A DNA stretch of 64,000 bases from an uncultured Anaerolineaceae bacterium (GCA_964611395.1 CAZSXY010000002.1:1682-65681); one strand, 5' to 3'; shown: positions 21,296-59,939, counted from the first letter of the stretch. Translations and numbers: made by a program. The notes: a model not told the origin generated them from the letters alone.

Positions 21296-21317
21296 AGGAG
21301 TTTGCTTTCCCCCACAT

Positions 21318-22913
21318 TCACGTCAAATCACTCAAACGACTCGGCGTTCCGTTTCGGCGCGCCTGGAGCACGTTCAGCAAATGAGCGCCCAATTCGCGAT
21401 CCTCGTCATCCAGGAAGCCCCCTTTCCACACCCACAACACTAAGACCCCGCTATAGAAAAGGCCAAACAGCACACCCACCGCCAGCGATGTCCCGCCAAG
21501 CAGCACGCTGATCCATCCCAACAGGCCACCGGCCAGCAAGCCGAACACGATCAGCACAAGATACATGCGGGTAAAGGGCTGGATACCCAGGCGCAACCAC
21601 AAATACCCGGACGTTAACCCATTGCTGAGCATAATCGTCAGCGCCGCGGCAAGCGCCGCGCCATCCAGGCCCGCTGCCGGAATCAAGATGACATTGGCGA
21701 CAACACTGAACAGGGCCATGATCACATTGATGAGCAGGATCAGGCGATTCTTGCCAATCGCGATCAGGAAGACCCGGTTGGGACCAACAACCACGCTTAC
21801 CGCGAACGCCACCAACAACAGTCGAAACGCGGTTGCAGCCATGCCGTAGCCGTTGCCATACAGCGATAGCACCGCCGGAGCGTAAATGACACCGGGAACG
21901 ACCATCGCCAACGTAGGCAAAAACAGCCACCGCGTGACACGCTGGTAGAGCCGTTCCGCCATGGGGATGTTGCCTTCGGCAACCAGCCGTGCCACCAGCG
22001 GCACAAAGATGCCAATGATGGCCAGCAACCCGGTTGAGAGAATGTTGGATAAGTTAAAGCTGGCATTATAAGCCCCCGCATCGATATTACCCAGCCACAG
22101 CGCCACCAGGTAGTTGGATAGTTGGTTACGCAGGCGCTCCAGCACCAGCGCCAACGCGAGCGGCATACCGGCAACGACCAGCAATCTTAGATTCCTGCGG
22201 CTTTGGGCCGATGTCATGAACGCGCCCCGCAATGGCATGATCAGGAAGCGGTATCGAAACACACCGTATCCCGCCACCACCCCAAAAACCAGCGCAAACA
22301 CACCGGCATAGGTCGCCAGATTTCCCCCGGCAAGCGCCAACAGGAGGGCAGCGACCAGCCACACCAGGTATGGCAGCGTGCGCACGAATGCCGCCTGGCG
22401 CATCTTTTCCAGGCCCCGCAGCGTGCCGCTTAACACCTGGATGACGCTCATGGGGATCAGCGCCAGGCCAATGATCCCCATGACCCGCGCCAACCGGGTT
22501 GTGTCAGATTCCCCACCGGCAGCCAGGCCGATGCCCGCCAGGATCAACGCGACAACCAGGCTGAGCAGAATCACCAGCGAAAGCGCGGGCACTACCAGCG
22601 CGGGTAAATTCAATGCCTGCCCGGCCCCGCGTGCCCGCCCGATGATCGGCGAAAGCGTGATCTCACTGCGCAGACTGGTCAAAATCACCACGGCATTCAC
22701 GAGCAGGATGGCCGTCGACCAGACGCCAAAGTCTTCGATGCCGACAGCCCGGCTGACGATCACGCCGGATAAGAACAGCGCACCGGTCCCGAAGACGGTT
22801 TCAAACAGGCCATAAAACAAGCCAACAGCCGCACCTAAGTTGGATGCAAACGCGGCAGAGTGTGCAGAGTTTCCCGAAGATTCGGCCATGTTTCCCCTAT
22901 CAGCAGCCATCAA
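21318..22913 (-). CDS. MOP-superfamily polysaccharide flippase (Wzx-like)
   Basis: ~14 TM helices, ~510-530 aa, adjacent to the GT4. The start may be internal (MAESSG...). Confidence 0.7.
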   Translation of the reverse strand: MMAADRGNMAESSGNSAHSAAFASNLGAAVGLFYGLFETVFGTGALFLSGVIVSRAVGIEDFGVWSTAILLVNAVVILTSLRSEITLSPIIGRARGAGQALNLPALVVPALSLVILLSLVVALILAGIGLAAGGESDTTRLARVMGIIGLALIPMSVIQVLSGTLRGLEKMRQAAFVRTLPYLVWLVAALLLALAGGNLATYAGVFALVFGVVAGYGVFRYRFLIMPLRGAFMTSAQSRRNLRLLVVAGMPLALALVLERLRNQLSNYLVALWLGNIDAGAYNASFNLSNILSTGLLAIIGIFVPLVARLVAEGNIPMAERLYQRVTRWLFLPTLAMVVPGVIYAPAVLSLYGNGYGMAATAFRLLLVAFAVSVVVGPNRVFLIAIGKNRLILLINVIMALFSVVANVILIPAAGLDGAALAAALTIMLSNGLTSGYLWLRLGIQPFTRMYLVLIVFGLLAGGLLGWISVLLGGTSLAVGVLFGLFYSGVLVLWVWKGGFLDDEDRELGAHLLNVLQARRNGTPSRLSDLT

Positions 22914-23039
22914 ACCAGCCCATATTACCGCAAAAACACCGTCTTGTATCTACGCGGCTGGGCCATGCACGAACACACTCGCGGTGCCCCAGCCACGAGT
23001 GTGTGTACGCGCCCTCCTGCTACGAGCAAGATAATCGAA

Positions 23040-24299
23040 TTATTCCGCCGCCTCGTCAATGAAATCTGGCCGGGGGCGGGTCTTGTGCGGGCCGTAAATC
23101 AGTCTGTCGAGTTTGGGCAGCAGGGACTGGTGCGGCCCCTTGATCCGGGCAACGGTTGAAACGGTCTTGTGCAACCAGTTCAACCGCTTGGTCCAGGGAC
23201 ACGCGGCCATGCAAATACCACAATCGGTCCCCACCGCGTGCCAGTAGCGATAACATTTCTCCTCGTCGAGTTTCCACTTCCTGATTCCGTTGTACTCGAC
23301 CTTGTCGCCCGCTGGAATAGCGCCAATGGGACAACTGTCAGCGCACACCTTGCACGTGTCACAAAACGACTGCACGCCAATATCCACCGGCTCATCATGC
23401 TGGAGGGGCATGTCCGTCGTAACAATGGCCAGCCGCAAACCTAACCCGTAATCTTTGTTGAGCAGGTATCCGGCCCGCGATAGCTCGCCCAGCCCGCAGT
23501 CAACGGCTACCGGCACACACAGCACCTGGTAGTTATGGAAATGATGCGCCCGCGCCGAATAGCCCAGCATACGAATGTACTTCGCCAGTTGAACCGACAC
23601 CCAGGCCCCTGTGGCATACCCCTCCGCCGTCGCCAGCAACACCGGAAAATCCGGGGCGTGCTGGATCAAGTCGTAATTCATGGCAAAGCCCAGCGTCACA
23701 GCAGTCGTGTGCTGGCTGAGATCGTTGGGCGTCCCCCAGGGTTGAAACCCATCCTGATCGCCAAAGGAACGCGCGCTGTGACTATACACCCATTCCTGGC
23801 GCAGCGGCCCGATCCCGACCAAGTCAGCGCCGAGCACACGCGCCAGCGCCTTAACCTTGAGCGCAGCGCGTTCGGGTGGGATGATCGTTTTCACCGGGGC
23901 AGGCGGGCCATCCACAAACGCATCAGGGCTGATCTGGTCGAGGGCGTCGAACTGGGCCGCAAACATCGGCTCATCAATGCCACCTGTTCGTCCCAGGCCG
24001 GGCATCTTGCTGATTTTCGTGTCGTAGTCCAGGTGTTCCGGATGCGCCGCATAGTAAGCCTGGTAGTGAGGTGAATCGACGCCAAAGTAGCGAAAGAGAT
24101 CGTTGCGAGAGAAGACGATATCCCGCTCATCCCACTGGCGGATGTCGCCTGTTACGTCCGCACAATACGTTGGTTGCTCGATACGCTCGCCCCATGTGGC
24201 CACCCGGCCCATACCTGCCTTGAGGGCAAACCAGGCGCGCCGAATTCGAGACCGGGAACGACGCGCGGGGGCACGATAGTTATTGACTCCCATCGTCAC
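23040..24299 (-). CDS. Reductive dehalogenase (RdhA)/QueG-family Fe-S protein, apparently cytoplasmic
   Basis: C-terminal double ferredoxin motifs FCDTCKVCADSCPIGAI and DCGICMAACPW. RdhA-like blocks LGADLVGIGP, VDCGLGELSRAGYLL, GLGLRLAIVTTDMPL. Confidence 0.6.
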   Translation of the reverse strand: MTMGVNNYRAPARRSRSRIRRAWFALKAGMGRVATWGERIEQPTYCADVTGDIRQWDERDIVFSRNDLFRYFGVDSPHYQAYYAAHPEHLDYDTKISKMPGLGRTGGIDEPMFAAQFDALDQISPDAFVDGPPAPVKTIIPPERAALKVKALARVLGADLVGIGPLRQEWVYSHSARSFGDQDGFQPWGTPNDLSQHTTAVTLGFAMNYDLIQHAPDFPVLLATAEGYATGAWVSVQLAKYIRMLGYSARAHHFHNYQVLCVPVAVDCGLGELSRAGYLLNKDYGLGLRLAIVTTDMPLQHDEPVDIGVQSFCDTCKVCADSCPIGAIPAGDKVEYNGIRKWKLDEEKCYRYWHAVGTDCGICMAACPWTKRLNWLHKTVSTVARIKGPHQSLLPKLDRLIYGPHKTRPRPDFIDEAAE

Positions 24300-24923: not shown

Positions 24924-27900
24924 GTGACGTGTATGTATTGGAATAAAGTTTCACTAATCAGGTATGTCGTCGTGTTGAGTATGCTAATAACCCTCTGGGT
25001 CTCCGCGAGCGCCTTACGCGCAGAAGACAGTGGCGAAGCCATCCCGGCAACAAATCGCCTGGCCGGGCAGACGTCCTCCAGCTATTCGTCGCGTGGCTAT
25101 CTCACTACGCCCGCCGAATTGAAGATCATTGCCCAGAAAGCCGCGCAGGGCGTCGAACCCTATAAAAGCACGGTGAGAGGAGTCCTTTCGGACGCGAATC
25201 GCACTTGGAATTACTCCCTCGATGCCAATGAAACGTGCGGCGGGTCCTCCGATCCCGCCTGGATCGTGCACAACGAAGGCATCCGCACACTCTACGCCAA
25301 GGCCCTGGCCTTTCACCTCACGGGCGATGCGCGCTACGCGGAAGAAGTTCGCACCATCCTTGAGGCGATCATGACTCGGGTGATCACCATCACCACAAAG
25401 GATGCCCAGTGCGGGCTGAACTTCGGCTGGGGTACACCGGAGCTTGTCGCGTCCGCCGACTTGATCGAAGACTACTGGCGCACCATGACCTGCACCGGCC
25501 CGCTCAACACAACATACGGCGACTCCAAAATCGGAACGGGCAACTGCAAGCAACTGTTCCAGAACTGGCTGGTGAAAAACCCGTACTACATCGTTTCCTA
25601 TACCGCCGAAAAGAGCCTGAACAACTGGGGCGCAGCAGCGACGACCGCCGTCGCCTATATTGCAGACTATCTATGGGATCGCCCCGATATGCCACTGGTA
25701 CACCGCTACCCGTCCCAGGTTAACGGCGGGAAGAGTGTGACCTTCACACCGGCGCAGGCTTACGCGCACGCCAACCAGCTCGCCATCGACCGGATGAACG
25801 GTTACCGGGTCGACTACCATGGCAGCAGCAGTTGCGATTTTCTGAGCGGGTCGCAGCAAAGCAGCCGGTGGACTCCGGTTAAATCGCAGATCACCGAACG
25901 GGGCATCGTGCCCGATGATGCGCGCCGCGAAGAGTATTGCAACGTCCCAACCTACAACGGCAGCTACCAGAACTACCCGCAAGTGCACCTGGGCAACAAC
26001 ATCCAGCAGTGCGAATTGATGCTCCGGCGCGGCGACCGTTCGTGCTATGACAATATCGACACCACCAAAATCACCGATTTCACCTATATCGATGCGCGTG
26101 GATCCGTGCGCACGACCACGTTGTATCCGGGACGCGGATCCATCGAACGGGCAATCAATGCCGTGATCCGGGACTCCAAGACCGAATGGCGACACGATGC
26201 GGGCCTGGCCGTCGCGTACCGGTACTACGCCAGCTATAGCCGGTTTGGTGGGGTTCAGGATTGGGCATCTCAAATCACCGCGATCAATGACTGTGCCCAG
26301 GATGTCTGCTTTGGCGTCCTGACGCACGGATTCGCGCCTGGCGAAAAAGTGGGGTTGCCGCCTACTGTTCCGCCACCATCGGACGGCAGCGCAAAGGCGC
26401 TACCAACACCTGTGCCGACGCAGACAACCGCCCCGACGCAAACGCAGATGCCAACAGAAGCGCCAACAGCAACCCCCACGACCGGCATGACCAGCACTCC
26501 CACACCGGAGATGACATACACGCCAACGGCCCTGCCGGGCGACGTTCAAATCTTCCTGCCCGTCGAAGATGCGCTGGTCAAATCAGCGCGTCCCGACCGG
26601 AACTATGGCACTGTCAGCTATCTGCGTCTGCGCGACAACGATGACGATTATCACGGCTATCTCAAATTCTACGTTGCCGGGCTGTCCGGGCCGGTGCAAC
26701 GCGCCACGCTGCGCCTGTTCGCTTATAACGGCAGCAAGGACGGCGGATCCGTCTACAGCGTCATGGATACTTACAGAGACAGCGCCGCGCCCTGGTTAGA
26801 GACCGAACTGACCTGGAACAATGCCCCACCGATGGATGGCACGCCGCTGAGCACTGTTGGCCCGGTCGCTGATGGCCAGTGGGTCGAGTTCGATGTAACC
26901 GCCGCCGTTACGGGCAATGGGATCATCTCCCTGGGGTTGTTGAACCGGTCATCGAATAGCGTGTACTACTACGCGAAGGAAGCGGAGGCCAACCAACCGC
27001 AATTGATCATCGAAGTGAGCGACGGCAGTCCAGAGGCCACCGAACCGCCCAACCCACCACTCCCTACCGAGACGCAACTTCCGACCGCGACGGCCACTCA
27101 AACGATAGTGCCGACCGATACACCTACGGCAACATCGACAATGATGCCAACCGACGCGCCCGCAGCAACATCGACGTCGGTGCTGACGCCAACCAGCACT
27201 GCCACGACCATCCCATCCGTGACACCAACATCACTGCCGCCGACGGCAACACCGGCATCACCGTCGCTAAAGACCGATCCACCGGTCAGCAGCACCCGTA
27301 TCGTGCTGCCGCCGAGCGATGACGTGCTGGTGAAGTCCAGCCGGCCTGACTACAACTACAACATTCGCACCTACCTGCGCGTCCGGATGACATCCACCGC
27401 CGATTATGACAGTTACCTCAAGTTCTCAGTGCCTACCCTGGCCGGACCCGTCACGAAGGCGACGGTGCGTCTGTATGCCTACGACGGCAGCCCGGACGGT
27501 GGTACGCTCTACGCTGCCTCAAACGAGTATGCGACCGGGGGCGCGTGGACAGAAACCGGCCTGGTCTGGAACAATGCGCCCGGTCTGGGCAGGCAGGTGC
27601 TGGGTTCAGCCGGCCCGGTTGCTGATGGTCAGTGGGTTGAGTTCGACGTCACTACCGCGATCAGCGGGGGCGGAACCTACAGCTTCGGGTTGACCAGCGC
27701 GTCTTCGAATAGCGTCTTTTACTACAGCAAAGAGGCCACCCAGAATCATCCGGAGTTGGTTCTTGAGATCGAATCCGGCTCACCGCCATCGTCAACTCCT
27801 GCCCCGACAGCCACCGCGCCGTTGCCGCCAACGATGACGCCGGTGGCAACGACGACACTGGTCATGCCCACCTTGCCACCTACCGTGACGGCCACGCTGG

Positions 27901-29276
27901 TCATGCCCACCACCACACCGACTTTGCCGCCTACTGCGACAGCCACGCTGGTCACGCCCTCCGCCACGGCCACCCTACTGCCTACTGCCACAGCCACGCT
28001 GGTCATGCCCACCGCCACACCAACACCCGATCCAGGGCGCTCGCTCACAGTCATCGAATCCGATAGTGCGCAAGTGACCAGAACCGGCCAATGGACGGCG
28101 CATGAAACGTCCTTGGCCAGCGGCGGGCAATACCTGTTCAGCAGCGGCAGCACCGCCGACACGCTCAGCCTGAGCTTCAGTGGCGGCTATGCCGAAGTGA
28201 TCTTTGTGCGCCATCCCGCGCTTGGATCATTTGCGGTGGAAGTAGACGGCGCGGTCATCCAAACCGTCGACAGCACCGCGAGCGACAGCATATTCGGTGA
28301 GCGGGTGGTGCTGAGCCTCAGCCCCACGCAGCACACGCTGCGCATCGTGCCGGTGACAGGCACGGTGGCCATCGATGCCTTCGTCGTCGAAACGCCGGCG
28401 CAACCACCGCTCTCGCCTGAGCCAACGGCGACGCCGGTCGTGTTACCAACGCAGACCATTGCCACCCAGGAGCCAACGGATGCGCCACCTTCGCCGACTG
28501 CCACAGCAACCAGCACGCCTGTAGTGCGCCCCCCAACATGGCCCCTGCCATACGTCGATCACTTCGACACCGCGACGAACTGGCAGGCAGAAGGCTCGTG
28601 GAAGTACGAACCCGAACGCAACAACCGGGGTGGGGAATGGCTGGCCGACAGCCAGATTCGCCAGCAGACAAGCACTCTGACCCTGCTCATGCCGGTCGAT
28701 CTGGGCACAGCAGTACGCCCGCAACTCTCCTTCTGGCACAAGGCCATGCTTGATCAAAGCGACCGGATCGCAGTGGACGCAAGCCGCGATGGTGGGATCA
28801 CCTGGCAGACACTCACCGAGCAGGCCGGGGCCAACTGGGACTGGGCACAACTCACGCTCGACCTGGCGGCCTATCGTGGCGCACCGGTGATGCTCCGCTT
28901 CCGGCTGGTGACGGGCGCTGCCAGCTTTGCGACCGTCAGCACCGGCTACTGGATTGATGACGTGGTTGTGCAAGACACTGTCACCACCCCGCCTACACCA
29001 ACCCAGCCCGCATCAGCAACCCCGCTGCCGACAGTAACGATGGCTCCAACAGAAACGGCTACGCCAACGATGCCACCAACTCCGACGGCAACACCACTGC
29101 CGACACTCACACCATCGTGGACGGCCACGCCACCACCAACGCTTACGCCGACCGGAACGGCCACGCTGCTGCCAAGCGCAACGCCATCCTGGACGCCCAC
29201 CAGCCCGCCGGAGGTCACACTCACCACACCTACGCAACCTCCCGATCAACCAACACCGGGTGCCGGAGAGCCTTAA
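24924..29276 (+). CDS. Giant secreted multidomain protein: lyase-like N-domain, 2 DNRLRE/CBM96-like domains, CBM-like domain, MAM-like beta-sandwich, Pro/Thr linkers
   Basis: Signal-like N-terminus. The N-domain is paralogous to 58488-59939. SARPDRNYG..YLRLR and SSRPDYNYN..YLRVR motifs mark the DNRLRE domains. Long PT-rich linkers. Start at GTG 24924 or ATG 24933. Confidence 0.8.
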   Translation: MTCMYWNKVSLIRYVVVLSMLITLWVSASALRAEDSGEAIPATNRLAGQTSSSYSSRGYLTTPAELKIIAQKAAQGVEPYKSTVRGVLSDANRTWNYSLDANETCGGSSDPAWIVHNEGIRTLYAKALAFHLTGDARYAEEVRTILEAIMTRVITITTKDAQCGLNFGWGTPELVASADLIEDYWRTMTCTGPLNTTYGDSKIGTGNCKQLFQNWLVKNPYYIVSYTAEKSLNNWGAAATTAVAYIADYLWDRPDMPLVHRYPSQVNGGKSVTFTPAQAYAHANQLAIDRMNGYRVDYHGSSSCDFLSGSQQSSRWTPVKSQITERGIVPDDARREEYCNVPTYNGSYQNYPQVHLGNNIQQCELMLRRGDRSCYDNIDTTKITDFTYIDARGSVRTTTLYPGRGSIERAINAVIRDSKTEWRHDAGLAVAYRYYASYSRFGGVQDWASQITAINDCAQDVCFGVLTHGFAPGEKVGLPPTVPPPSDGSAKALPTPVPTQTTAPTQTQMPTEAPTATPTTGMTSTPTPEMTYTPTALPGDVQIFLPVEDALVKSARPDRNYGTVSYLRLRDNDDDYHGYLKFYVAGLSGPVQRATLRLFAYNGSKDGGSVYSVMDTYRDSAAPWLETELTWNNAPPMDGTPLSTVGPVADGQWVEFDVTAAVTGNGIISLGLLNRSSNSVYYYAKEAEANQPQLIIEVSDGSPEATEPPNPPLPTETQLPTATATQTIVPTDTPTATSTMMPTDAPAATSTSVLTPTSTATTIPSVTPTSLPPTATPASPSLKTDPPVSSTRIVLPPSDDVLVKSSRPDYNYNIRTYLRVRMTSTADYDSYLKFSVPTLAGPVTKATVRLYAYDGSPDGGTLYAASNEYATGGAWTETGLVWNNAPGLGRQVLGSAGPVADGQWVEFDVTTAISGGGTYSFGLTSASSNSVFYYSKEATQNHPELVLEIESGSPPSSTPAPTATAPLPPTMTPVATTTLVMPTLPPTVTATLVMPTTTPTLPPTATATLVTPSATATLLPTATATLVMPTATPTPDPGRSLTVIESDSAQVTRTGQWTAHETSLASGGQYLFSSGSTADTLSLSFSGGYAEVIFVRHPALGSFAVEVDGAVIQTVDSTASDSIFGERVVLSLSPTQHTLRIVPVTGTVAIDAFVVETPAQPPLSPEPTATPVVLPTQTIATQEPTDAPPSPTATATSTPVVRPPTWPLPYVDHFDTATNWQAEGSWKYEPERNNRGGEWLADSQIRQQTSTLTLLMPVDLGTAVRPQLSFWHKAMLDQSDRIAVDASRDGGITWQTLTEQAGANWDWAQLTLDLAAYRGAPVMLRFRLVTGAASFATVSTGYWIDDVVVQDTVTTPPTPTQPASATPLPTVTMAPTETATPTMPPTPTATPLPTLTPSWTATPPPTLTPTGTATLLPSATPSWTPTSPPEVTLTTPTQPPDQPTPGAGEP

Positions 29277-29310
29277 TCCCTCCCGTCGGCAACACGGTGC
29301 CCGCCCCGAA

Positions 29311-29363
29311 GAATCCCGCGGCCTCACAACCCTTCTTTATATGAGGCGCGGGATTCTTTTTTT
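29311..29363 (+). terminator. Rho-independent terminator of the 24924-29276 gene
   Basis: GAATCCCGCGGCCTCA / TGAGGCGCGGGATTC form a 15-bp stem with one bulge, followed by TTTTTTT. Confidence 0.8.
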
Positions 29364-29506
29364 CTAACTTCGAAACAAGAATTGACAGCATATTTATGCT
29401 GTTAGACCTTTAATAACCTTATAATAGAGATAGAGAGGTTTATCGATGCTGGCACAACTGTCGTTGGTCATGCACGTCTATTGGCAAAGTAATTTGTGGG
29501 GGAACC

Positions 29507-29746
29507 ATGGCCCAACGTAATCGCGGGCGACTGGACTCGTTGCTGGAAGCATTGCAAGAGTTAGTGAATGACTGGCAGGAAATCGCGGTGGAGTTACGCG
29601 CGCGTGCCGACCGGCGCGCACGCAACGACCTTGAGACCGGTTACATGTACGGGCTTGCCGACGGCTATGAACGCAACGCGAAGAAAATCACCCACCTCAT
29701 CACAACCCAGGAGCCCCAGCGCGACCCAAATCCTGCCCCGGAATGA
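29507..29746 (+). CDS. Small hypothetical helical protein (79 aa)
   Basis: ATG preceded by GGGGGA. It is the only ORF in the gap between the two convergent giant genes. No recognisable family. Confidence 0.35.
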   Translation: MAQRNRGRLDSLLEALQELVNDWQEIAVELRARADRRARNDLETGYMYGLADGYERNAKKITHLITTQEPQRDPNPAPE

Positions 29747-29765
29747 TAACTCCGCATACAAAAAA

Positions 29766-29790
29766 CCGGCCCGTAAGCCAGTTCTTGTTT
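29766..29790. terminator. Weak bidirectional hairpin terminator
   Basis: CCGGC-ccgtaa-GCCAG hairpin flanked by AAAAAA upstream and TTCTTGTTTT downstream. Lies between the two convergent stop codons. Confidence 0.3.
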
Positions 29791-29834
29791 TCCATTAAAA
29801 TCGCCATCAAGGCCGATACCGGTGCACTTGCAGG

Positions 29835-32800
29835 CTATGCGTCTTCGATCTGCACTCCGTTGAGCCAGTAGGAACCACCCACACTCGCCGCCGGGTCGCT
29901 GAGCACCACCCGGAAGCGCAACCGGATCACCTGCCCCTGATAGGCGTTCAAGCTGACAGTGCGCTGCGCCCAAACAGTGACCAACCCCACCTGCTGATCA
30001 ATCGTCACCCAGGAAGCACCACCGTCCACACTGACATCGATCGCGATCGTATCACCGGGCAACAAGTCGCCCTTCTGCATGAAGCTGAGTTGCTGCAACA
30101 CGCTGGCATCGAGTGCGAGGAATCCGTTGTATTCTAGCGTACTCACCGCCACCTGACCGTTTGGCGCCAACACCCAGGACGTTGTCGCCGCATCATAAGT
30201 CCAGTCTCCGCTCGCCAGCCAACTCGATTCGTCCCCCGATAGATCGCTGGCAGGCACAGGGGTTGTGGTCGCAAGTGGCATCGATAGCGTTTCAGCGCTT
30301 GAGGATGTTGTCTCCGCAGCGGAATCAAGCTCAATGACAAGCTCCGGCGGGTTCACTGTTGACTCTTTGCTGTAGTAGAACACGCTGTTCGTCGACGCGC
30401 TATTCAGCCCAAAGCTGTAAATGCCATCACCACTGATCGCGCCGGTCACATCAAACTCGACCCAGGTGTCAATGACGGCCTCGCCCACCGCATCCAGCGC
30501 TGATCCGCCGATCACAGGCGCGTTATTCCACGTGATCCCCATTTCAGACCAAGCGCCGCCGGTCGCGTAATCGTTCGAGACCAGGTAAATCGACCCACCA
30601 TCCGGGCTGCCGTCATACGCATACATGCGCAACGTGGCCTTCGTCACCGTTCCACCCAGCCCCGTGATATTGAATTTCAAGAAGGTACGATACTCGCGTG
30701 TGTCTGTCAGCCGCAGCCGCAAATACGTCGAGTCGCCATAGTTCGAGGTCGGGCTGGACGAAGACACCCGCGCGTCATCACTGGGCGCAAAGATCATCTC
30801 CGCCGGTGGCGGCGGCGTGAAGGTCGGCGTTGGTGTTGGTGTGCTGGTAAACGTTGCCGTCAGCGTCGGCGTATCCGTCACTACCGGTGTGTCCGAGGGC
30901 GTTGGCGTCTCGGTCGGAGACGGCGTCTCGGTGGGTGTGTCCGTCACCGTTGGTGTAAACGTCTCGGTCGGCGTGTCGGTTGGCGTGAACGTCTCCGTTG
31001 GTGTAAACGTCTCGGTCGGCGTGAAGGTCGCCGTCGGAGTCTGCGTCTCGGTCGGTGTGTCTGTCACCGTTGGCGTAAAGGTATCCGTCGGAAGCGGTGT
31101 ATTGGTAGGTGGCGGACCAGCATCCACCTCAAGAACCAGCTCCGGCGGGTTCACAGCCGATTCTTTGCTGTAGTAGAGCACGCTGTTCGTCGACGTGCTA
31201 TTCAACCCAAAGCTGTAGATGCCGTCACCGCTGATCGCGCCGGTCACATCGAACTCTACCCAGACATCGGCACCGACCGCGCCTACGGAATCCAGCGCTG
31301 TCCCGCCGATCGCAGGCGCGTTGTTCCACGTGATCCCCATTTCAGACCATGCGCCACCGGTCGCGTAATCGTTCGAGACCAGGTAAATCGTGCCGCCGTC
31401 TTTGCTGCCGTCATATGCGTACATGCGTAACGTGGCCTTCGTCACCGTTCCGCCTACGCCGCTCACCGCAAATTTCAGGAACGTGCGGTATTCGCGCGTG
31501 GAAGTCAGCCGCAGCCGCAGATATGTCGAGTCGCCGTAATTCGAATCCGGGCTGGACGAATACACTCGCGCGTCATCGCTGGGCGCAAAGATCATCTCCG
31601 CCGGTGGCAGCGGTGTAAATGTTGCCGTTGGCGTGAAGGTGAAGGTCGGCGTGGGCGTTTCGGTGGGCGTATCCGTCACTATTGGCGTGTCCGTCGGTGT
31701 GAAGGTCGCCGTAAACGTCGGCGTGTCAGTGGGCGTCGGCGTGTCGGTCGGCGTAAGTGTCTCCGTCGGAGTCTGCGTCTCGGTGGGCGTATCCGTCACC
31801 GTCGGCGTGTCCGTAGACGTAGGCGTTTCGGTCGGCGTATCCGTCACCGTCGGAGTCAGCGTTTCGGTGGGCGTATCTGTCACCGTCGGCGTGTCCGTTG
31901 GTGTATCTGTCGGCGTAAACGTCGGCGTAAAAGTATCGGTCGGAAGCGGTGTATTGGTCGGCGTCGGGCCAACTTCCACCTCAAGAACCAGTTCCGGCGG
32001 GTTCACAGCAGACTCTTTGCTGTAGTAGAATACGCTGTTCGTCGATGTGCTATTCAGCCCAAAGCTGTAGGTGCCATCACCGCTGATCGCTGCGGACACA
32101 TCGAACTCAACCCAGGTGTCAATCACGGCTTCGCCCGCCGCATCCAGCGCCGATCCGCCGATCGCGGGCGCGTTGTTCCAGGTGATCCCCAGTTCAGACC
32201 ATGCGCCACCGGTCGCGTAATCATTGGAGACCAGGTAAATTGTGCCGCCGTCCGGGCTGCCATCATACGCATACATGCGCAACGTGGCCTTCGTCACCGG
32301 CCCGCCCAGCCCGCTCACAACGAACTTGAGGAAACTCCGATATGCCCCGGTATCGGTCAAGCGCAGCCTCAGGTACGTCGCATCACCATAGTTTGAATCG
32401 GGATTTGCTATGTAAACACGCGCGTCATCGCTGGGTGATATGGTCACAATGGCCGGCGGTAATGGCGTATTAGTAAACGTTGCCGTCGGCGTTGGCGTAT
32501 CCGACGGCGTTGGGGTATCGGATGGTGTTGGCGTGTCCGAGGGCGTGGGCGTGTCCGATGGTGTCGGCGTGATGGATGGGGTCAACGTGTCCGTTGGCGT
32601 TGGCGTGATCGATGGCGTGAGCGTTTCAGTGGGCGTGTCCGTCACCGTCGGCGTATAGGTGAACGTAGGCGTCGGTGTCGGCGGCCCTCCCGACAACGTC
32701 AGGTAATTATGGTAATAAAACTCCGTCGAACTATTCGACGCGACTACGACGATGCCTGTCGTGCCGTCAACATTCTGTTTGGTGGACGCCGGATTATTGG

Positions 32801-33968
32801 TCTTGACCGTCGAGGAGCTGCTGATGAAAACATCGCCTTTGCCCGGAGGGAACGCAATAGTATTGATGTCTGATGACTTGTGATAAATCGCGCCGCCACT
32901 TTGCCCCGATGTCGCAAACATGTGGATCATGCCGTTTGCCTCATCGAGCAACACAATGGGGCGCGTATGGCTATCATCCCCCGTGCCAAATGTATAGGTT
33001 GACCACCCGCCCAGCGCCCCGCGCACGTGCAAAACCACAAGCGGGTCGCTGCCCGTATGTCCTGTCTTGCCGGCGACAAACAATCGCCCGGAGCTATCAG
33101 CTTTGAGATTAAGGTGATCGTCGGTCTCCCCGCTCCCCTGAACGATCACTTCCTGCTGCCAGGTCGTGTCTGGGTCTCCATCCTGGTGGATCGCCAGGTA
33201 CGACGCCGAGTCATTCTGGTTACTCCACACAACGCCGATCTTGTTTCCCTGGAACGCAATAACGGCGGCTATGTCGTCGCTCGACACGTTATCAGCCCCG
33301 GTCGGAACCGGCAAAACATACGACGTGCCCCACGTCGCATCGTCAGATAGGCTGTGGTTCACCATCACCTTGCGGCTTTCAACATAGGCGATCCACAACG
33401 TACCGGATGAATCTTTGGCAATGGTCAGCGTTTCCGACTTGCCCTGAGTTATCGTAACCGGGAAACCGGGGTCGAGGCTATATTGCTGAGTTGAACTGTT
33501 ATAACTGTACCGGTAAAGGCGGCCCCAGTTCGAGGCGGAAGAAGTTGGCGCTGCACTTGTGGTGAAGACATGCGAAACGAGATACAGCTTCTGGCTCGCA
33601 GCGTCCCACAGCACATCCCCCTTGGTTCCACCCCGGTCGTCCAGCGCCGTGCCGGTGTCAATCCAGGTTTGCGTAAACGGGTCCAGACGATAAATGCGGT
33701 ACTCGTCAGCGGCCTCGTTGAACAGATCGCCCCACCAGAACCCATCATTCCACCACAGCTTGCTTTCCGGTTTTTCACCCGTTGGCGTTGAGTTTACTGA
33801 ACTACCGTAGCTGAAATCAACATAACCGACATCGCCTTCTTGGGCCAATGTCGGTGTTTGTGACCATAGCGATGTGCTACCGGCTACCGCAACGGTAGCC
33901 AATATGACAATTAGCCACAGACGCACACTTCTATGGCCAAGAATTCGACGTCGATTCGGAAAAACCAC
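29835..33968 (-). CDS. Giant secreted multidomain protein: beta-propeller/sialidase-like N-domain, 3 DNRLRE/CBM96-like domains, MAM-like C-domain, Pro/Thr/Asp linkers
   Basis: Signal-like N-terminus. Three repeats of [23 protein letters not shown] ... ELVLEV. The C-terminal domain is homologous to that of 24924-29276. Confidence 0.8.
30331..32462 (-). repeat. Three tandem ~0.8-kb intragenic repeat units (DNRLRE domain plus PT linker)
   Basis: Domain-coding blocks at ~30331-30815, ~31121-31612 and ~31968-32462 align at DNA level with few mismatches. For example, tccggcgggttcac...ctttgctgtagtag recurs at 30342, 31141 and 31992. Confidence 0.85.
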
Positions 33969-34205
33969 TTCAGCTCCCAGAAACCATACAAGCAGTTACA
34001 GTTACGCCAAAAAGGTCACCGAACCGCCCCGGCTTATATTACTAGCCCGCTTGTTAGAGTTGCGATCACATTATCATTGACACGACGTGACCATACTATA
34101 CCACATCACAGGGATAAAAAACTGTAAAAATTCCTTCACATTGGATATACGGTACATTCAACCTTCGTTTAACCTGGCCTATGTCGCAGGCAGGCTAATA
34201 GAGCT

Positions 34206-34817
34206 TTATCCTCCGGTGTCGTTTGTCTCCCCAAATTGTTGCGCGACGCCCCTGGTGTCATAGGCAATCCAGGCTTCGGCGATCTTTCCATCCTCACCGA
34301 AACGATGAATGACCGTAAAAACCAGGTCAAGCACTTCCCCTGTCGGCGGAAAATCGTAAAACTCACTGGCAAACGTGCCGCGCAGGCGGGCGCGTACGGC
34401 CACAAACTGCCCCTCGGCGATCACGATCTCCGGCGTAACAACCAGGTCGGGAACGGCCCTGCGCAACAGCAAAATTACTTCCGCATAGTCCGTCAGCGTT
34501 AAATCCTCGCGATCAACCACGCTATCCGGCAAATGCCCGACAAAATCAGCCGCGTAAACCCCGGCTAACATGTCCTGGTCACCGGCATTGAACGCGTCGT
34601 CGATCACACGCTGTATGACCTCTTTGTAGACCGACAGTTCCTCCGCGCTGGCGGTGCCAACTGCCTGCGTAGGCACGGCTGTCGGCAACAACGGCGGGCC
34701 GGTTGACGCCGCTACTGGTGTTGAATCAGAATTGGGTGCGACCAGCAAACCGATTACAAGACCTCCCACAACCAACAAAACCGCCACGATCCCTGTAACA
34801 AACCATTTCCGTTGCAT
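34206..34817 (-). CDS. Membrane-anchored SnoaL-like (ester cyclase/NTF2-like) protein
   Basis: N-terminal TM helix, Pro-rich linker, then a ~130-aa block with an ester-cyclase-like pattern (VIDDAFNAGD...YAADFVGH...GKIAEAWIAYD). Confidence 0.5.
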   Translation of the reverse strand: MQRKWFVTGIVAVLLVVGGLVIGLLVAPNSDSTPVAASTGPPLLPTAVPTQAVGTASAEELSVYKEVIQRVIDDAFNAGDQDMLAGVYAADFVGHLPDSVVDREDLTLTDYAEVILLLRRAVPDLVVTPEIVIAEGQFVAVRARLRGTFASEFYDFPPTGEVLDLVFTVIHRFGEDGKIAEAWIAYDTRGVAQQFGETNDTGG

Positions 34818-34872
34818 GGCCCTACTCCTTTTGTCCTTCTATCCCTCTACAATGTCCAGCACGCCCCAATTC

Positions 34873-36555
34873 TTATTGTGAAGATACAACCGGTAACAAT
34901 GACAAATCGCCGTTAGGAGCCAGCAGAAACGCCGCTATCCAGCCGGTATAGCGGGCATTCTGCACCTGTATCCACTCGCCATCCGCTGAACGCCCAATCG
35001 CCGCCAGACTATCGCCGTTCCCCAGCGTTGCAATGACCGCAAAATTTCTGCTGGGGCCGCTGCGCATATAGATGCCACCGCTAGTATACACGGTGACCAG
35101 TAGTTGATCGTCAAGCATGTAATCAAACGGCGCATTTGTGAGCGCCAGCAAAGCACGCAACACCTGCCCCAGACAGTCCTCCGATCCCGGTGCACCGGGC
35201 AATTCAATGCATACCTCGCTAAATGCCAGATCAACGCCAAACACCCGGCGAGGCAAACGAAGCTCGATCACGTCACCAACTGCCATTCGCGCATCGGGGA
35301 CGAAGAATGCTTCGCCCGTTTCACTGACGCTGATCGTCTCGCGTGTGGTCACCTTAATCTGCCGGTCTGCCCGGCCATCCCGGTTAGTATCCAGAGCGAG
35401 CTTGATCTCAACGGCGGAATCAGGACGCATCCGCGTGCGCACCAGCAGGTAGACATACAGGTCATCCGCAAACGCGGATGCTACCTGCAAGTCCGGGCTG
35501 GCGACTTCTGCATCGACGGCATCAAAGACGGCGGTCACACTACGGGCGGCCCAATCATCGCCCTTGCCATCGACCGCCAGCCAGGTGAACCCCCTGGGCA
35601 ACGCCGGCCACGCTTCGGGCGGAGACCCCAGCAGCCAGGCCGCGATTCGCTCAGCCAGGATTCGATTGCCAGGGTAGCGGGGTGACAGCCCATCGCGCGC
35701 CAGCCCGTAGCCATTCTGCAACAACTCCGAATCGCCCAGGAGCACGATCCGCGCGCCGGTGTTGGTGCTGATCGCCTGCGCACCGATGTTCAGCCGCCCG
35801 CGGGCATCCAGGTGTGCTTCAAATTCCAGGTGGCCTATCGCCTCGTCACTGCGCGTCCGGAAGAGATCCTCGCCCGTCTCGCCATACGCCGTATCGGTAT
35901 ACAGCAACGGGGCGGCCTCGCTGCCCAACCCCAATGGCTCAACGGTCATATGTCGCGCTCCCCAGACCCACACAGGGAGATCGAAGCGCCGCAATGGGGC
36001 AGCAATTGGCTCGGAAACAACGTCAGCAAACGCCAGCCCGTAAGTCGTATCGAGACTCTGGATCGTCTCGATTGAAGACCAGGGTTCTGCGAGGAACGTG
36101 TCAAATACCTTGAGGCCAAAGTCGGCCTCGATCAGCTTGGCCAGCCCACTCCGGTTATAGCGCGGTTTGACATTCTTCGTGCCAAGAAAGAAGTTTTCCG
36201 GATCAATGGCCAGCAACAGGTTATTGCCGCGAGCCAGATGCGCCCACAAGTACCCCACCTGGGGCAACTTGAGACTGCGCATCGGGCGCACCAGAACGAC
36301 CACATCCGCATCAGAGGGCAAGGGCGACTCCAACCGGTCAAACTGAACGCGTGCGCCTTGCGCGCGGAATATTCCGGCGAGTTGGCTGATCCCCGACGGG
36401 CCGATATTGGTCATCGCCGCCGAATCAAACGGGCGACTCCCCTCGATGATCACGACCAGGGGCTGTCCACCGGTTTGCGCCCGGCTGAAAGGTAGCCCTG
36501 TACCCAGCAGCACCAGAACCACCAACCCAAAAGCTAACAAGCGAAACCTGTTCAT
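34873..36555 (-). CDS. Secreted GldG/DUF4350-like protein with C-terminal SH3b domain
   Basis: Signal peptide. The N-terminal part is paralogous to 36566-37630. The C-terminus (YMRSGPSRNFAVIATLGNGDSLAAIGRSADGEWIQVQNARYTGWIA) is SH3_3-like. Confidence 0.5.
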   Translation of the reverse strand: MNRFRLLAFGLVVLVLLGTGLPFSRAQTGGQPLVVIIEGSRPFDSAAMTNIGPSGISQLAGIFRAQGARVQFDRLESPLPSDADVVVLVRPMRSLKLPQVGYLWAHLARGNNLLLAIDPENFFLGTKNVKPRYNRSGLAKLIEADFGLKVFDTFLAEPWSSIETIQSLDTTYGLAFADVVSEPIAAPLRRFDLPVWVWGARHMTVEPLGLGSEAAPLLYTDTAYGETGEDLFRTRSDEAIGHLEFEAHLDARGRLNIGAQAISTNTGARIVLLGDSELLQNGYGLARDGLSPRYPGNRILAERIAAWLLGSPPEAWPALPRGFTWLAVDGKGDDWAARSVTAVFDAVDAEVASPDLQVASAFADDLYVYLLVRTRMRPDSAVEIKLALDTNRDGRADRQIKVTTRETISVSETGEAFFVPDARMAVGDVIELRLPRRVFGVDLAFSEVCIELPGAPGSEDCLGQVLRALLALTNAPFDYMLDDQLLVTVYTSGGIYMRSGPSRNFAVIATLGNGDSLAAIGRSADGEWIQVQNARYTGWIAAFLLAPNGDLSLLPVVSSQ

Positions 36556-36565
36556 TGATCGGCGC

Positions 36566-56668: not shown

Positions 56669-58483
56669 TTGCTTGAGCTTACACTAGCCACCGATTTTAT
56701 TCCCGGCTCAAATCTGCGCGGCAATGTGGCCGGAGCCAACTGGACCTATCTACTACCCGACCTGAACCTGGAAGCAATGCTCTGTGTAGGCGCGCCTTCG
56801 ACGGCAGCCTTGCACACGCTGGCTTCGCTGGCCCAGTCCGTTATCGTGTGCACACCCTCGCATGCCAGCCTCGATACTAGAGCGCTCGCTGGCTGGCCGA
56901 ACGTCACGCTACTGGCCATTGCCAGCAACGGAACGCTGCCCCTTGATGACCTGAGCGTCGATCTGGTATTTGTGACAGACCGGCATCTTGTGCGCGATCA
57001 CCGGCAACTGGAGAACGAGATACGCCGCGTGCTGCGCCCGCGCGGGCTGGCGTACTACGAAACCCGTAGCCCGCTGCGCCGGATGCCGTCAGCCGACAAC
57101 CTTCTGGGTTCCGGAAGCGCGCAACACTTCTGGCTGACGCCGCTCGGTGGCGAGATGCACACCGCGGTTCCGGCCAGCGATGCCGTCACACGCCGCTTTT
57201 TCCTGCGGCAGGCGTTGTTCAGCCCGTCGATCACCGTGCACACGGCGAAACGCGCTATACGCCGCATGCGCAGACGACGCCAGACCGTCGCGTCGCCGGA
57301 CACCCCACCCTCGCCACCAGAAGACCGCGCCCCGCAACGCCTGGGTGACAGGATGCGGTTGCTTGGCGATCGCGTGTTCGAAGCGCTGGCCAGCGCCGAG
57401 GGTACACTGCACCGGCATACCACGCTGATCGGGCGGTATGGCGTCCTCGAAGGTCGCGCGGGCGCTCCCCTTACCGGCGACCCACCCGCCTACCTGTGCG
57501 ACATGGCGGAGCAGGCGGGTCTTGACCTGCACCAATACGGGTGGGGATTGTGGGCCGGAGGCCAATACAGCTCGCGGAAGCTGCTATTCTTCCTCGTCGA
57601 TCGGGAATCGGCGTCGCTGCGCTACCTGGTCAAAATGGTTCGCGACCCGTCGTTCAATACCCGGTTGGAGAACGAATGCGCGGCCCTCAAAGACCTGGAA
57701 GCACGCAACTTCGCGCACGATCACGCGCTGCCAAGGGTTGTCTTTCATGGCCATCACCACCACCTGGCAATCGTCGGCGAGACGGCGGTGCAGGGAGTTC
57801 CCTTCAAGAGCAAAACGCGCCTCACGGCGTCATGTCCCTACGCCCATGCCGTGATCGAGTGGCTGACAGATTTGGGCGCAACCACCGCCTCGCCCGACGA
57901 CGTCGCGCCGCAGGACGTCGCCCGCGCTCTGAACACCCTTTTCGAGCGCTTCCAGGCCATTTACCGGTTACCACCTGCCGAGCGCGACTTCCTCAGCGAA
58001 CAGATCGCCGCTTTGGGCAATAGCCGGACGCCGTTTCCGCTGGTATTTCAGCACGGCGATCCCGGCCCCTGGAATATGCTGGTCACGCCTGACGACACGG
58101 TTGCCTTGTTGGATTGGGAATCTGCCGAGGCGAAGGGCATCCCGTTGTGGGACCTGTTTTACTTCTTGCGATCATATGCCGTGAACGTTGCGCGTTCCAA
58201 CGGGACGGCTGATCGGGTGGAGGGGTTTGCCAAACACTTTCTAACCCGCTCGTCGCTTAACCACATGATAGTGGATGCCACGCGCCAGTACTGCACGCGG
58301 ATCGGGCTGGCTGGCGAATTCATTGGCCCGTTGTTTTACACCTGCTGGATGCATCGTGCGCTCAAGCAATCAACTCTGCTACAATCTCATACATTGGCAG
58401 ACGGGTACTACTTCCGCCTGCTTCGTTACACCATCCAGCAACACGACGCACCAGCACTCAGACAATTATTCACGCAGACCTGA
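56669..58483 (+). CDS. Fusion of methyltransferase-like domain and APH/protein-kinase-like domain
   Basis: The N-half is collinear with 42906-43529. The C-half has QHGDPGPWNMLV and LLDWESA, collinear with 41875-42906. TTG start. Confidence 0.6.
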   Translation: MLELTLATDFIPGSNLRGNVAGANWTYLLPDLNLEAMLCVGAPSTAALHTLASLAQSVIVCTPSHASLDTRALAGWPNVTLLAIASNGTLPLDDLSVDLVFVTDRHLVRDHRQLENEIRRVLRPRGLAYYETRSPLRRMPSADNLLGSGSAQHFWLTPLGGEMHTAVPASDAVTRRFFLRQALFSPSITVHTAKRAIRRMRRRRQTVASPDTPPSPPEDRAPQRLGDRMRLLGDRVFEALASAEGTLHRHTTLIGRYGVLEGRAGAPLTGDPPAYLCDMAEQAGLDLHQYGWGLWAGGQYSSRKLLFFLVDRESASLRYLVKMVRDPSFNTRLENECAALKDLEARNFAHDHALPRVVFHGHHHHLAIVGETAVQGVPFKSKTRLTASCPYAHAVIEWLTDLGATTASPDDVAPQDVARALNTLFERFQAIYRLPPAERDFLSEQIAALGNSRTPFPLVFQHGDPGPWNMLVTPDDTVALLDWESAEAKGIPLWDLFYFLRSYAVNVARSNGTADRVEGFAKHFLTRSSLNHMIVDATRQYCTRIGLAGEFIGPLFYTCWMHRALKQSTLLQSHTLADGYYFRLLRYTIQQHDAPALRQLFTQT

Positions 58484-58487
58484 TGCC

Positions 58488-59939
58488 ATGAGATTTATGC
58501 CCATTCGCTATTTGAAACAAACGGTCTTTACCATCATCGCACTCATCACCATCCTGGGACTTCCAACCCCCGTTCATATAGCCGCAACACCCTACCAGCC
58601 ACACGCGCCAGACCCACCGCGCCAGACCGGCAGCAGCACCTCGCGTGGTTACCTTACCACGCCCGAAGAACTGCGCGTGATAGCCCAGAAAGCCGCCGAA
58701 GGTTTGGAACCCTACCAGAGCGCAGCAGCCGACGTCATCAAAAACGCGGAGCGCACATGGGACTACAAGCTGGACGAGTACGAAACCTGCAAAAGCTCGC
58801 GCAACCCCGCCTGGATACACAGCGAGCGCGGGACTGCAGTGCTTTATGCCAAAGCCCTGGCCTATCACCTGACCGGCGACACCCAGTATGCCGCCGAGGT
58901 CAAAACGATCCTGGAACGGATCATGCGCACCGTGCTCACCATCTCGTTGAACAAACAGCAGTGCCGCCTTAACTTTGCATGGGGTACACCCGAACTGGTC
59001 GCTTCCGCCGATCTGATCGAGGACTTCTGGCATGATATGACCTGCACGGGGCCGCTCAGCACACGTTACGATGATACAACCCTCGGCGCGGGAAACTGCA
59101 AGGCCTTGTTCCAGAACTGGCTGGTCAAAAACCCGTACTATATCGTGGCCTATGCGGCGGAAAATAGCCAGAGCAACTGGGGGGCAGCGGCCACGACGAC
59201 TCTGGCGTACATCGCCGACTATCTATGGGATCGCCCGGATGTGCTGATCGTGCACCGCGTGCCCCCGCAAATCAACGGCGGGAGGGATCTGTTGCTCACC
59301 CCCGCAGAAGCCTATACCTATGCCAACCAGATCGCCCTGGATCGCATGAACGGCTACCGCGTGGAGTATCACAGCAGCAATTCATGTGATTTTCTGTCCG
59401 GCCCGCAGCAATCCGACGCGTGGGCACCGGTGAAGTCACAGATCACCGAACGAGGCATCATCTCTGAAGACGCCCGCCGCGCAGAGTATTGCAACATCCC
59501 GGCCTACAACGGGGAATACCAGAACTACCCCCAGATATACCTGGGCAACACCATCCAGCAGTGTGAATTGATGTGGCGACGTGGCGACAACTCATGCTAC
59601 GACAACATCGATCGCACCGACATTTCGGACTACACATTCACCGATCCCGGTGGCACGACGCGCACGACGCATCTCTATCCAGGACGCGGCTCTATTGAAC
59701 GGGCCATTAACGCGATTATTATCGATTCGGGCACCGAATGGCGGCATGATTCGGCGCTTGAAGTGGCCTATCGTTACTACTACCTGCACCACCAGTTCGA
59801 CGGCGTTGGGTATTGGGCCAGCCAGTTTAACCGCCCCGCTATCTGTAGCCAGGACATCTGCTTCGGCACGCTCACCCACGGCTTTGCCCCTGGCGAAACT
59901 CCCAAACCTCCGCCCACCGTGCCCCCACCGGCAGAATAG
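58488..59939 (+). CDS. Secreted polysaccharide-lyase-like protein (alginate-lyase-like alpha/alpha toroid suspected), paralog of the N-domain of 24924-29276
   Basis: Signal peptide (FTIIALITILGLPTPVHIAA). Roughly two thirds of positions are identical by eye to residues ~55-490 of the giant protein, with conserved Cys positions. Start at ATG 58488, since the track ORF extension overlaps the upstream gene. Confidence 0.55.
   Translation: MRFMPIRYLKQTVFTIIALITILGLPTPVHIAATPYQPHAPDPPRQTGSSTSRGYLTTPEELRVIAQKAAEGLEPYQSAAADVIKNAERTWDYKLDEYETCKSSRNPAWIHSERGTAVLYAKALAYHLTGDTQYAAEVKTILERIMRTVLTISLNKQQCRLNFAWGTPELVASADLIEDFWHDMTCTGPLSTRYDDTTLGAGNCKALFQNWLVKNPYYIVAYAAENSQSNWGAAATTTLAYIADYLWDRPDVLIVHRVPPQINGGRDLLLTPAEAYTYANQIALDRMNGYRVEYHSSNSCDFLSGPQQSDAWAPVKSQITERGIISEDARRAEYCNIPAYNGEYQNYPQIYLGNTIQQCELMWRRGDNSCYDNIDRTDISDYTFTDPGGTTRTTHLYPGRGSIERAINAIIIDSGTEWRHDSALEVAYRYYYLHHQFDGVGYWASQFNRPAICSQDICFGTLTHGFAPGETPKPPPTVPPPAE

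Follow-up and report, generated by a model that had tools for sequence, protein, structure and literature searches.

What two giant proteins encoded towards each other within an exopolysaccharide (EPS) locus might do is the question raised by a stretch of 64,000 nucleotides from an uncultured Anaerolineaceae bacterium (GCA_964611395.1, CAZSXY010000002.1:1682-65681), the whole of which is referred to here as the window. The two proteins are the products of gene A (24924..29276, + strand; 1450 amino acids) and gene B (29835..33968, - strand; 1377 amino acids), which had been picked out in an earlier reading of the nucleotide sequence (the original prediction) as a convergent pair of giant secreted proteins built from shared modules with different, catalytic-looking heads. 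It was found that the window holds a large EPS locus, and that the families to which the two heads belong end the two arms of a syntenic Wzx/Wzy locus. Because both head families belong to this conserved exopolysaccharide cluster, A and B likely cut or remodel the cell's own slime, and we hold with moderate confidence that they are polymer-tethered secreted proteins that process the EPS of the cell that makes them.

Both open reading frames (ORFs) are intact and uninterrupted, and the pair is convergent as had been claimed. Gene A encodes a predicted chimeric secreted protein, arranged as a signal peptide, head A, two CBM96 domains, a CE2_N-like domain, a MAM-like domain and a Pro/Thr tail; its database record begins at the ATG at 24933, three codons in, which is the probable start and gives 1447 amino acids. 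The gene B product is arranged as a signal peptide or anchor, head B, three CBM96 domains and a MAM-like domain. All modules in the two proteins are spaced by Pro/Thr linkers, which could be delimited in both, as anticipated. Each N-terminus carries a basic-hydrophobic signal or anchor segment, as read off the sequence, and from these signal peptides, together with conserved disulfide cysteines, both products would be secreted. Gene B encodes no cysteine anywhere.

The genes of the window were compared by BLAST with the contigs of relatives, which represent different genera of the same family. The two-armed locus is kept in two of these relatives (G005 and G002) and partly in a third (G013). 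Arm 1 consists of Bac_transf, Wzz, NTP_transf_5-kinase, GT4, GT2, Wzy, pentapeptide-Wzx and MT-APH genes and ends in a stand-alone head A. The first part of arm 2 comprises HprK-like, MT, APH, GT4, TMPK-like and ATP-grasp genes, and the remainder comprises CE4 deacetylase, ABC_transp_aux, DUF4350-SH3 and SnoaL-like genes, followed by a giant head-B protein. In the window, the ortholog of the arm-1 terminal gene is a stand-alone head-A paralog (58275..59939, + strand) that is 68% identical to the head of gene A, and the gene that ends arm 2 has gene B as its ortholog. Stand-alone head A was also found between GT2, Wzx and Wzy genes on three further, unrelated contigs (L004, L039 and L040), and head-B genes were found in or beside such loci on two of three contigs (L006 and L042). 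The link to the neighbouring polysaccharide locus that had been proposed for the pair is therefore strongly backed by synteny in other genera.

Amongst 40 relatives, four encoded both heads, two head A only, four head B only and 30 neither (odds ratio 15, p 0.0095, uncorrected for phylogeny), and the two heads share one contig in three of the co-occurring genomes. A class-level survey recovered head A in two of 301 genomes. The stand-alone head A of G013 is identical to a database protein (P0006) that is sister, in the head-A tree, to a protein of an 'Aggregatilineaceae bacterium', and the family carrying the conserved locus is, on this sequence relationship, probably the Aggregatilineaceae.

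AlphaFold2 models of the two heads were built with 45-sequence alignments and compared with the PDB using Foldseek. Head A (residues 34-505; 25023..26438, + strand) was modelled as an alpha/alpha toroid (predicted local distance difference test, pLDDT, 87; predicted template modelling score, pTM, 0.90) and matched PL17, PL39, PL38 and PL5 structures with a Foldseek probability of 1.00. The nearest structure was PL17 Alg17c (4ojz; E 4.5e-5), followed by PL39 Dp0100, PL38 and PL5 A1-III/AlgL, with glycosaminoglycan lyases and a dermatan-sulfate epimerase (DS-epimerase 1, 6hzn) at lower ranks. The head contains 10 Cys, all of them invariant in its family, which fits an extracellular protein; the description of this domain as Cys-rich and alginate-lyase-like was thus borne out. 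The family comprises more than 370 relatives from Anaerolineae, Caldilineae and other Chloroflexota, mostly stand-alone proteins of 460-530 amino acids that are 58-69% identical and annotated as 'hypothetical', and about 110 of 472 alignment columns are invariant at an overall identity of about 60%.

Sequence searches of the PDB with both heads, using single sequences and profiles, returned nothing significant. Against PF05426 (Alginate_lyase) the head A of the window scored 13.8 bits, below the gathering cut-off of 22.2, and 22 of 45 family members matched this model at E<=1, the best at 1.7e-6. An hhalign comparison of the head-A profile with four bona fide PF05426 proteins of Chloroflexota gave an E-value of 5.5e-5 over 179 columns (head residues 30-225), with the motif LAYxLTGDxxY in common; the four-sequence canonical profile was needed, as only 18 columns were aligned with a single canonical lyase. 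A PF05426 search of control genomes yielded no usable characterised lyase, and for a distant relative with a PF05426 match (P0283) only the PKD domains were matched in the PDB. Head A is homologous to the alginate-lyase fold family, with an altered catalytic apparatus.

This alteration concerns the residues on which PL5 catalysis depends. The PL5 signature NNH(S)YW carries a catalytic His (PMC7239423, PMC8705907), and the canonical lyase His residues were looked for among the head-A family and are absent. Head A has an invariant N201-W202-G203 (NNWGAA) where the strongest canonical member (L043) has NNHGNW, and two other bona fide PF05426 members (L044 and L045) also have NNW, so that the His-to-Trp substitution occurs within the PF05426 family itself. 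In the C-terminal halves, hhalign placed QITERGIVPDDARR...QNY318 of head A opposite canonical QITPDGSQPLELART...LHY in a weak alignment (E 0.058). R301, R302 and Y318 are invariant in the head-A family, and on that weak alignment R301 and Y318 would be the counterparts of the neutralising Arg and the catalytic Tyr. Head A may function as a lyase, an epimerase or a hydrolase, or may only bind its ligand.

Head B (residues 43-430; 32679..33842, - strand) was modelled as a seven-bladed beta-propeller with higher scores (pLDDT 94.7, pTM 0.93), its 27 strands being assigned to seven four-stranded blades with an N-terminal strand closing. The top Foldseek matches were 5mum, 5muk, 7drq, 6byt, 7esk and 5uas; the best were to GH145/PL42 (5mum, 5muk and 7esk) and then to PL24 and PL25 propellers, with E-values of 5e-9 to 1e-6 and query-normalised template modelling (TM) scores of 0.56-0.64, and a pseudaminidase, sialidases and propeller lectins (PLL2, CV39L and AofleA) occupied lower ranks. 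The propeller in the original prediction was thereby recovered, but its sialidase-like character was qualified, since sialidases are matched less well than the GH145/PL42, PL24 and PL25 enzymes. An assignment to the GH33 sialidases was rejected, as head B has only two invariant Arg (R70 and R294), no Arg triad and no BNR match in the head, and none of the 45 family members matched BNR_4 (PF15892) or related Pfam models at E<=1. The family is very large, with more than 1,500 relatives that carry TIG, PKD, FN3, CBM96 or RTX tails and are annotated only as 'hypothetical'. At E<=1e-30 it forms 2,074 clusters at 50% identity; looser counts are inflated because the profile also held some tail columns.

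Conservation across the 45 sequences was mapped onto the strands of the head-B model. Every blade has invariant polar residues where its innermost strand begins or immediately ahead of it, namely (in head numbering) K24/S27/K28, D68/R70 and E137 in blades 1-3, and D189/D190, D242/H243, R294 and N349 in blades 4-7. These residues differ between blades, and their place in the fold puts them around the central axis, on a single face. Propeller lectins carry the same site in every blade, and the single central site formed by differing residues in head B is enzyme-like, unlike that of a lectin. H243 and R294 are invariant and H219 nearly so, all on the inferred central face. The active sites of PL42, PL24 and PL25 propellers likewise lie on the anterior (central) face, although H219/H243/R294 are not collinear with the His/His/Arg/Tyr pattern of FoRham1 (H85/H105/R166, of which the His serve as base/acid and its support and the Arg as neutraliser; PMC8377490). 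The modelled central ring is rich in Asp and Glu, and a hydrolase would fit it equally with a lyase. Enzymatic function is something we infer for both heads, since head A is without the canonical lyase His and head B without the sialidase Arg triad.

Behind these heads, the two proteins have tails built from related modules. Profile hidden Markov model (HMM) searches located two CBM96/DNRLRE domains in gene A, at residues 542-699 (26547..27020, + strand) and 792-950 (27297..27773, + strand), and three in gene B, at residues 507-665 (31974..32450, - strand), 791-949 (31122..31598, - strand) and 1057-1215 (30324..30800, - strand). The scores were 205.5 bits (Pfam) and 155 bits (NCBIfam) for gene A and 324.6 and 228.2 bits, respectively, for gene B, far over the cut-offs of 26 bits for PF24517 and 34 bits for NF033679, in agreement with the copy numbers that had been predicted. 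Gene A also encodes a 'mid' CE2_N-like beta-sandwich of about 125 amino acids (residues 1036-1160; 28029..28403, + strand; weak HMM match), which was absent from the earlier list of modules and has no counterpart in gene B. In relatives this domain sits in the tails of head-B proteins, and eight of nine members of its family match CE2_N weakly (best E 5.6e-5).

The C-terminal domains, at residues 1206-1365 of gene A (28539..29018, + strand) and 1236-1377 of gene B (29838..30263, - strand), span about 150 amino acids and are 35% identical to one another (E 7e-24); in gene A the domain is followed by the Pro/Thr tail, which extends up to 29273. Their homology and the motifs quoted for them were upheld, but the MAM-type label describes a resemblance only, as no HMM reaches its cut-off: InhA-like_MAM was matched by six of 10 family members (best E 1.5e-5), NF038128 at 23.1 against 30 bits and Reelin_subrepeat-B at 21.2 against 27 bits, and matches to MAM and to choice-of-anchor J were likewise sub-threshold. 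An Asp-box-like motif is present in both domains, SRDGGITW in gene A (residues 1286-1293; 28779-28802) and SVDGGASW in gene B (residues 1298-1305; 30054-30077), and accounts for the weak BNR and Reelin-subrepeat-B matches of these domains.

The ligand of the tail may be approached through the founding CBM96, TM6-N4 of the PL39 alginate lyase Dp0100, which binds internal alginate chains by way of K10, K22, K25, K27, K31, R36 and Y159 (PMC9971899). Its structure, 7VBO, is the best PDB sequence match of the CBM96 copies described here (E 1.8e-6). In the alignment K25 and K27 stand opposite the two arginines of the RLR in the DNRLRE motif, K31 and R36 are substituted with an Arg one position off each, K10 and K22 are unconserved, and the Y159 region is unaligned. 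Tethering of the tail to an anionic polymer is plausible. Several kinase-like genes and an ATP-grasp gene lie in the EPS locus, joined in this genome by one for a sulfotransferase, and this gene content is compatible with an anionic polymer. In two Caldilineaceae-like contigs (L004 and L042), the EPS loci contain PEP_mutase and 2-hydroxyacid dehydrogenase genes, a hint at phosphonate or similar anionic decoration in those lineages.

Features of the heads and tails alike bear on a different explanation, namely that A and B are non-catalytic scaffolds of the matrix or sheath, in which the heads, an inactive lyase and a propeller lectin, would bind specific glycans while cross-linking of EPS or sheath around filaments would fall to the tails. 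Beta-propeller matrix proteins of Vibrio biofilms act as such scaffolds, and the lack of the canonical lyase His in head A, the lectins amongst the fold matches of head B, and the very large size of proteins with many CBM96 domains and long Pro/Thr spacers would all suit this role, as would the occurrence of DNRLRE domains in S-layer proteins (PMC9971899). We nonetheless consider it doubtful: head B has blade-specific invariant charged residues on its axis, where lectins repeat one site, the roughly 110 invariant columns of head A include Asn, Arg and Tyr candidates, and most members of the head-A family are untethered, stand-alone proteins of 470-520 amino acids encoded inside biosynthetic operons.

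Gene A itself was found to be an extra, chimeric paralog, in which head A is placed on the complete tail that relatives use for their head-B proteins. Head A in relatives is usually stand-alone, encoded in frames of 479-560 amino acids in six of seven copies and in one frame of 704 amino acids. The head-B protein of G013, for instance, has its head at residues 41-429, CBM96 domains at 478-636 and 711-869, the mid domain at 895-1020 and the C-terminal domain at 1043-1202, and the tail of gene A (two CBM96 domains, mid and C-terminal domain) is collinear with such tails. The mid domain of gene A is 61% and its C-terminal domain 38-44% identical to those of foreign head-B proteins, compared with 35% between the C-terminal domains of genes A and B. 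Fusions of head A with CBM96 numbered three amongst 41 long-protein matches, these being gene A, P0244 (1432 amino acids) and P0245 (1381 amino acids), and the three share one architecture. Gene A and P0244 group together in the head-A tree (100/99 support), from which it follows that the fusion of head A to this tail is older than this genome, and the stand-alone copy of the window groups with stand-alone orthologs.

Other fusions of head A carry phytase-like propellers, dockerins and T9SS (type IX secretion system) tails. In a recurrent fusion, seen in the proteins P0246-P0254 (820-920 amino acids), the head-A toroid is combined with a beta-propeller that carries the annotation 3-phytase (PF02333), which is another toroid-plus-propeller pairing, in one polypeptide. 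A head-A copy in a class-level relative (G454:C59:7298-8617) lies in a 1273-amino-acid open frame, with one TAG counted inside, and may be a fused form.

The original prediction had explained the shared tails by module exchange between genes A and B, on the ground that the second DNRLRE domain of gene A is closer to the repeats of gene B than to its own first domain. The motif string quoted for this (YATGGAWTETGLVWNNAP) and its 18-letter counterpart are both present, and the closeness is real (61-64% identity, against 54% to its own first copy), but the copies of G005 match equally well (60-61%). A tree of 23 CBM96 domains groups the copies of each head-B protein with one another; those of gene B, three in number (99/97), have the copies of the G005 ortholog as their sister group (92/90), and the two copies of gene A lie on long unresolved branches outside the gene B clade. 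The tree does not join the two genes, and the exchange proposed between them was accordingly set aside. The CBM96 repeats of gene B share 80-85% DNA identity, with synonymous divergence (dS) of 0.6-0.87 (0.6-0.9) and dN/dS of 0.11-0.15, and these values mark them as long-standing duplicates kept by purifying selection and not as tracts of recent conversion. A recent conversion or exchange event linking the two genes was rejected in view of the unresolved CBM96 tree, the A-versus-B DNA identity of 70-74% and the dS among the copies of gene B. The data show an older head swap, not an exchange of modules between the two genes; at the level of the families, the picture of two heads on one tail is upheld. 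In two relatives the head-B gene consists of two overlapping ORFs (G005:C5, in L027/L028, joined 32556-36928; G017:C6, in L033, 3369-7147), split between two nearly identical CBM96 copies, which may reflect a genuine frameshift or else a repeat that was collapsed in assembly.

The fusions also bear on the possibility that A and B are foraging enzymes for foreign polysaccharides, such as algal or plant polyuronates or sulfated glycans, with no relation to the neighbouring genes. Both heads are structurally nearest to lyases and hydrolases of catabolic function, dockerin, T9SS-tail or PKD modules occur in other members of the families, P0244 and P0245 adjoin ABC sugar or peptide transporters instead of EPS genes, and the founding CBM96 itself came from a catabolic alginate lyase (PMC9971899). 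Such a role is improbable here, as both families keep their terminal position in a biosynthetic locus across genera, and appear in such loci on unrelated contigs, and the pair in the window has no genes for transport, regulation or downstream catabolism attached to it.

On the reading that we prefer, in which A and B process the cell's own EPS, the two arms of the locus each end in a predicted secreted protein of an uncharacterised family. Arm 1 ends in a stand-alone alginate-lyase-like toroid, here the gene at 58275-59939, and arm 2 in a large propeller protein, which would be tethered to an anionic polymer by its tail of CBM96, CE2_N-like and MAM-like modules. In gene A the propeller-type tail carries a head-A domain instead, such that a toroid head would be held on the same polymer. 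After export, both heads may act on the EPS of the locus to trim, cleave or modify it, and the outcome could be control of chain length, release, or remodelling of the matrix, by analogy with lyases and glycosidases that other EPS operons encode. The suggestion that the pair are depolymerases or remodelling enzymes of the neighbouring polymer has gained a link to the locus by synteny, whilst the canonical lyase His and the sialidase Arg triad are absent.

Several observations weigh against this reading. Neither head passes any curated family model of Pfam or NCBIfam. The His of the PL5 signature is an invariant Trp or is lost in head A, with no His in either register, the 'HY' His is replaced by Asn317, and the Arg/Tyr assignment comes from a weak alignment (E 0.058); for head B, catalytic residues could not be mapped onto PL42, PL24 or PL25. 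The UDP-sugar 6-dehydrogenase genes of the genome lie on other contigs, with none in the locus, and for this reason the uronate substrate that a lyase needs is unproven. The convergent neighbourhood of A and B was found in this genome alone, the fused P0244 and P0245 lie outside EPS loci, and so does one head-B homolog (L041). The least probable of the alternatives, which overlaps the preferred reading, is that head A modifies the intact polymer, for instance as a uronyl C5-epimerase with the lyase-like chemistry that dermatan-sulfate and heparosan epimerases use, and head B depolymerises it: DS-epimerase 1 is amongst the head-A fold matches, one family member gives a weak C5-epim_C match, the altered motif and unusually high conservation fit a biosynthetic role and the head-A gene sits mid-operon in L004 and L040, but these fold matches are weaker than those to lyases and the locus holds no uronate-synthesis gene.

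Processing of the cell's own EPS stays the preferred function, and a more specific proposal can be put forward tentatively. Head B may represent a new and very large carbohydrate-active propeller family (at least 2,000 clusters, no Pfam model) and head A a His-less offshoot of the alginate-lyase fold, and the two could form an extracellular processing pair for a Chloroflexota-specific, probably phosphorylated or sulfated EPS or sheath, with the tail serving as a portable tether for either head.

Other features of the region surround the pair. Directly upstream of gene B lies a gene for a SnoaL-like/NTF2-like protein with an N-terminal transmembrane anchor and a Pro-rich spacer (34206..34817, - strand). 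The same adjacency of SnoaL and head B is seen in four relatives (G005, G002, G013 and G017), and the protein may be a dedicated partner of the propeller protein, such as a chaperone, an inhibitor or a small-molecule-handling subunit. Each of the two giant genes has its own candidate terminator: a terminator-like hairpin with a U7 run follows gene A (29309..29365, + strand; -28.7 kcal/mol, z -6.0) and another follows gene B (-13.8 kcal/mol, z -3.1). The spacer of 558 bp between them contains a 79-amino-acid ORF (29507-29746, + strand; MAQRNRGRLDSLLEALQELVNDWQEIAVELRARADRRARNDLETGYMYGLADGYERNAKK...), preceded by an AT-rich stretch and followed by a hairpin that could stop transcription both ways; weak homologs of it (33-36% identity) were found in two of 40 relatives, outside this locus. 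The genes at 19131-24299 encode a sulfotransferase, a GT4, a second Wzx and an RdhA-like Fe-S protein. Counterparts of these genes and of gene A are missing from the otherwise syntenic loci of G005, G002 and G013, and as a set they resemble an accessory addition to the conserved locus. Around the sulfotransferase gene the DNA is richer in AT (GC 0.53).

Filamentous Anaerolineae are major formers of matrix and sheath in activated sludge, sediments and mats, and to our knowledge almost nothing is known of their extracellular polymers or of the enzymes by which these are shaped. The locus offers two candidates for such enzymes, an unannotated propeller family of thousands of members and a highly conserved alginate-lyase-like family without the usual histidines. 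As both are tied to one syntenic Wzx/Wzy locus, its polymer is the obvious first substrate and the question of substrate is directly testable. The head-swap chimera also indicates that the CBM96-based tail is a modular tether for unrelated heads, which is useful for annotation and for enzyme engineering. Should both heads turn out to be non-catalytic, the two proteins would serve as a model of EPS scaffolding in monoderm-like Chloroflexota.

In comparison with known systems, A and B are of a known kind, the multimodular CAZyme-like protein with CBM96. What is new, as variation on that kind, is the head swap and the two head families, with catalytic sites that are altered or unassigned and a fixed position within an EPS locus of Chloroflexota. 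One close parallel is Dp0100 of Defluviitalea phaphyphila (PL39; PDB 6JP4, 7VBO; PMC9971899), which is likewise secreted, combines a toroid lyase-type head with CBM96 and, as 6jp4, ranks fifth amongst the matches of head A. Dp0100 is catabolic, however, and its catalytic unit of toroid and beta-sandwich (DUF4962/Hepar_II_III) is accompanied by FN3, CBM32 and CBM35, whereas head A is a single-domain toroid without the catalytic His, from a biosynthetic-locus family, and the heads have no detectable sequence similarity. The PL5 lyases AlgL and A1-III (PF05426; 7SA8, 1QAZ, 4F13) resemble head A in being single-domain (alpha/alpha)n toroids (target-normalised TM 0.58-0.61, with A1-III at 0.61) with the LAYxLTGDxxY motif and a collinear QI..G..P.[DE].R...Y block. 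AlgL is, moreover, encoded within the biosynthetic operon of its substrate. Head A departs from them by an insertion of about 50 amino acids, five disulfide pairs' worth of conserved Cys and a conserved N-terminal motif, GYLTTPxEL.

For head B, the nearest systems are GH145/PL42 (BT3686, FoRham1), PL24 (LOR_107) and PL25 (PLSV_3936) (PMC8377490), which are also seven-bladed with a central site, though sequence identity to head B is 9-13%; the conserved ring of head B holds His and Arg residues. The Methanosarcina disaggregatase and DNRLRE surface proteins are archaeal and combine DNRLRE with other domains (PMC9971899; PMC2447325). They differ from A and B in those other catalytic or structural domains, and share with them, in a comparison made by domain only, a DNRLRE/CBM96 module joined to a domain located in, or acting upon, the cell's own extracellular polymer.

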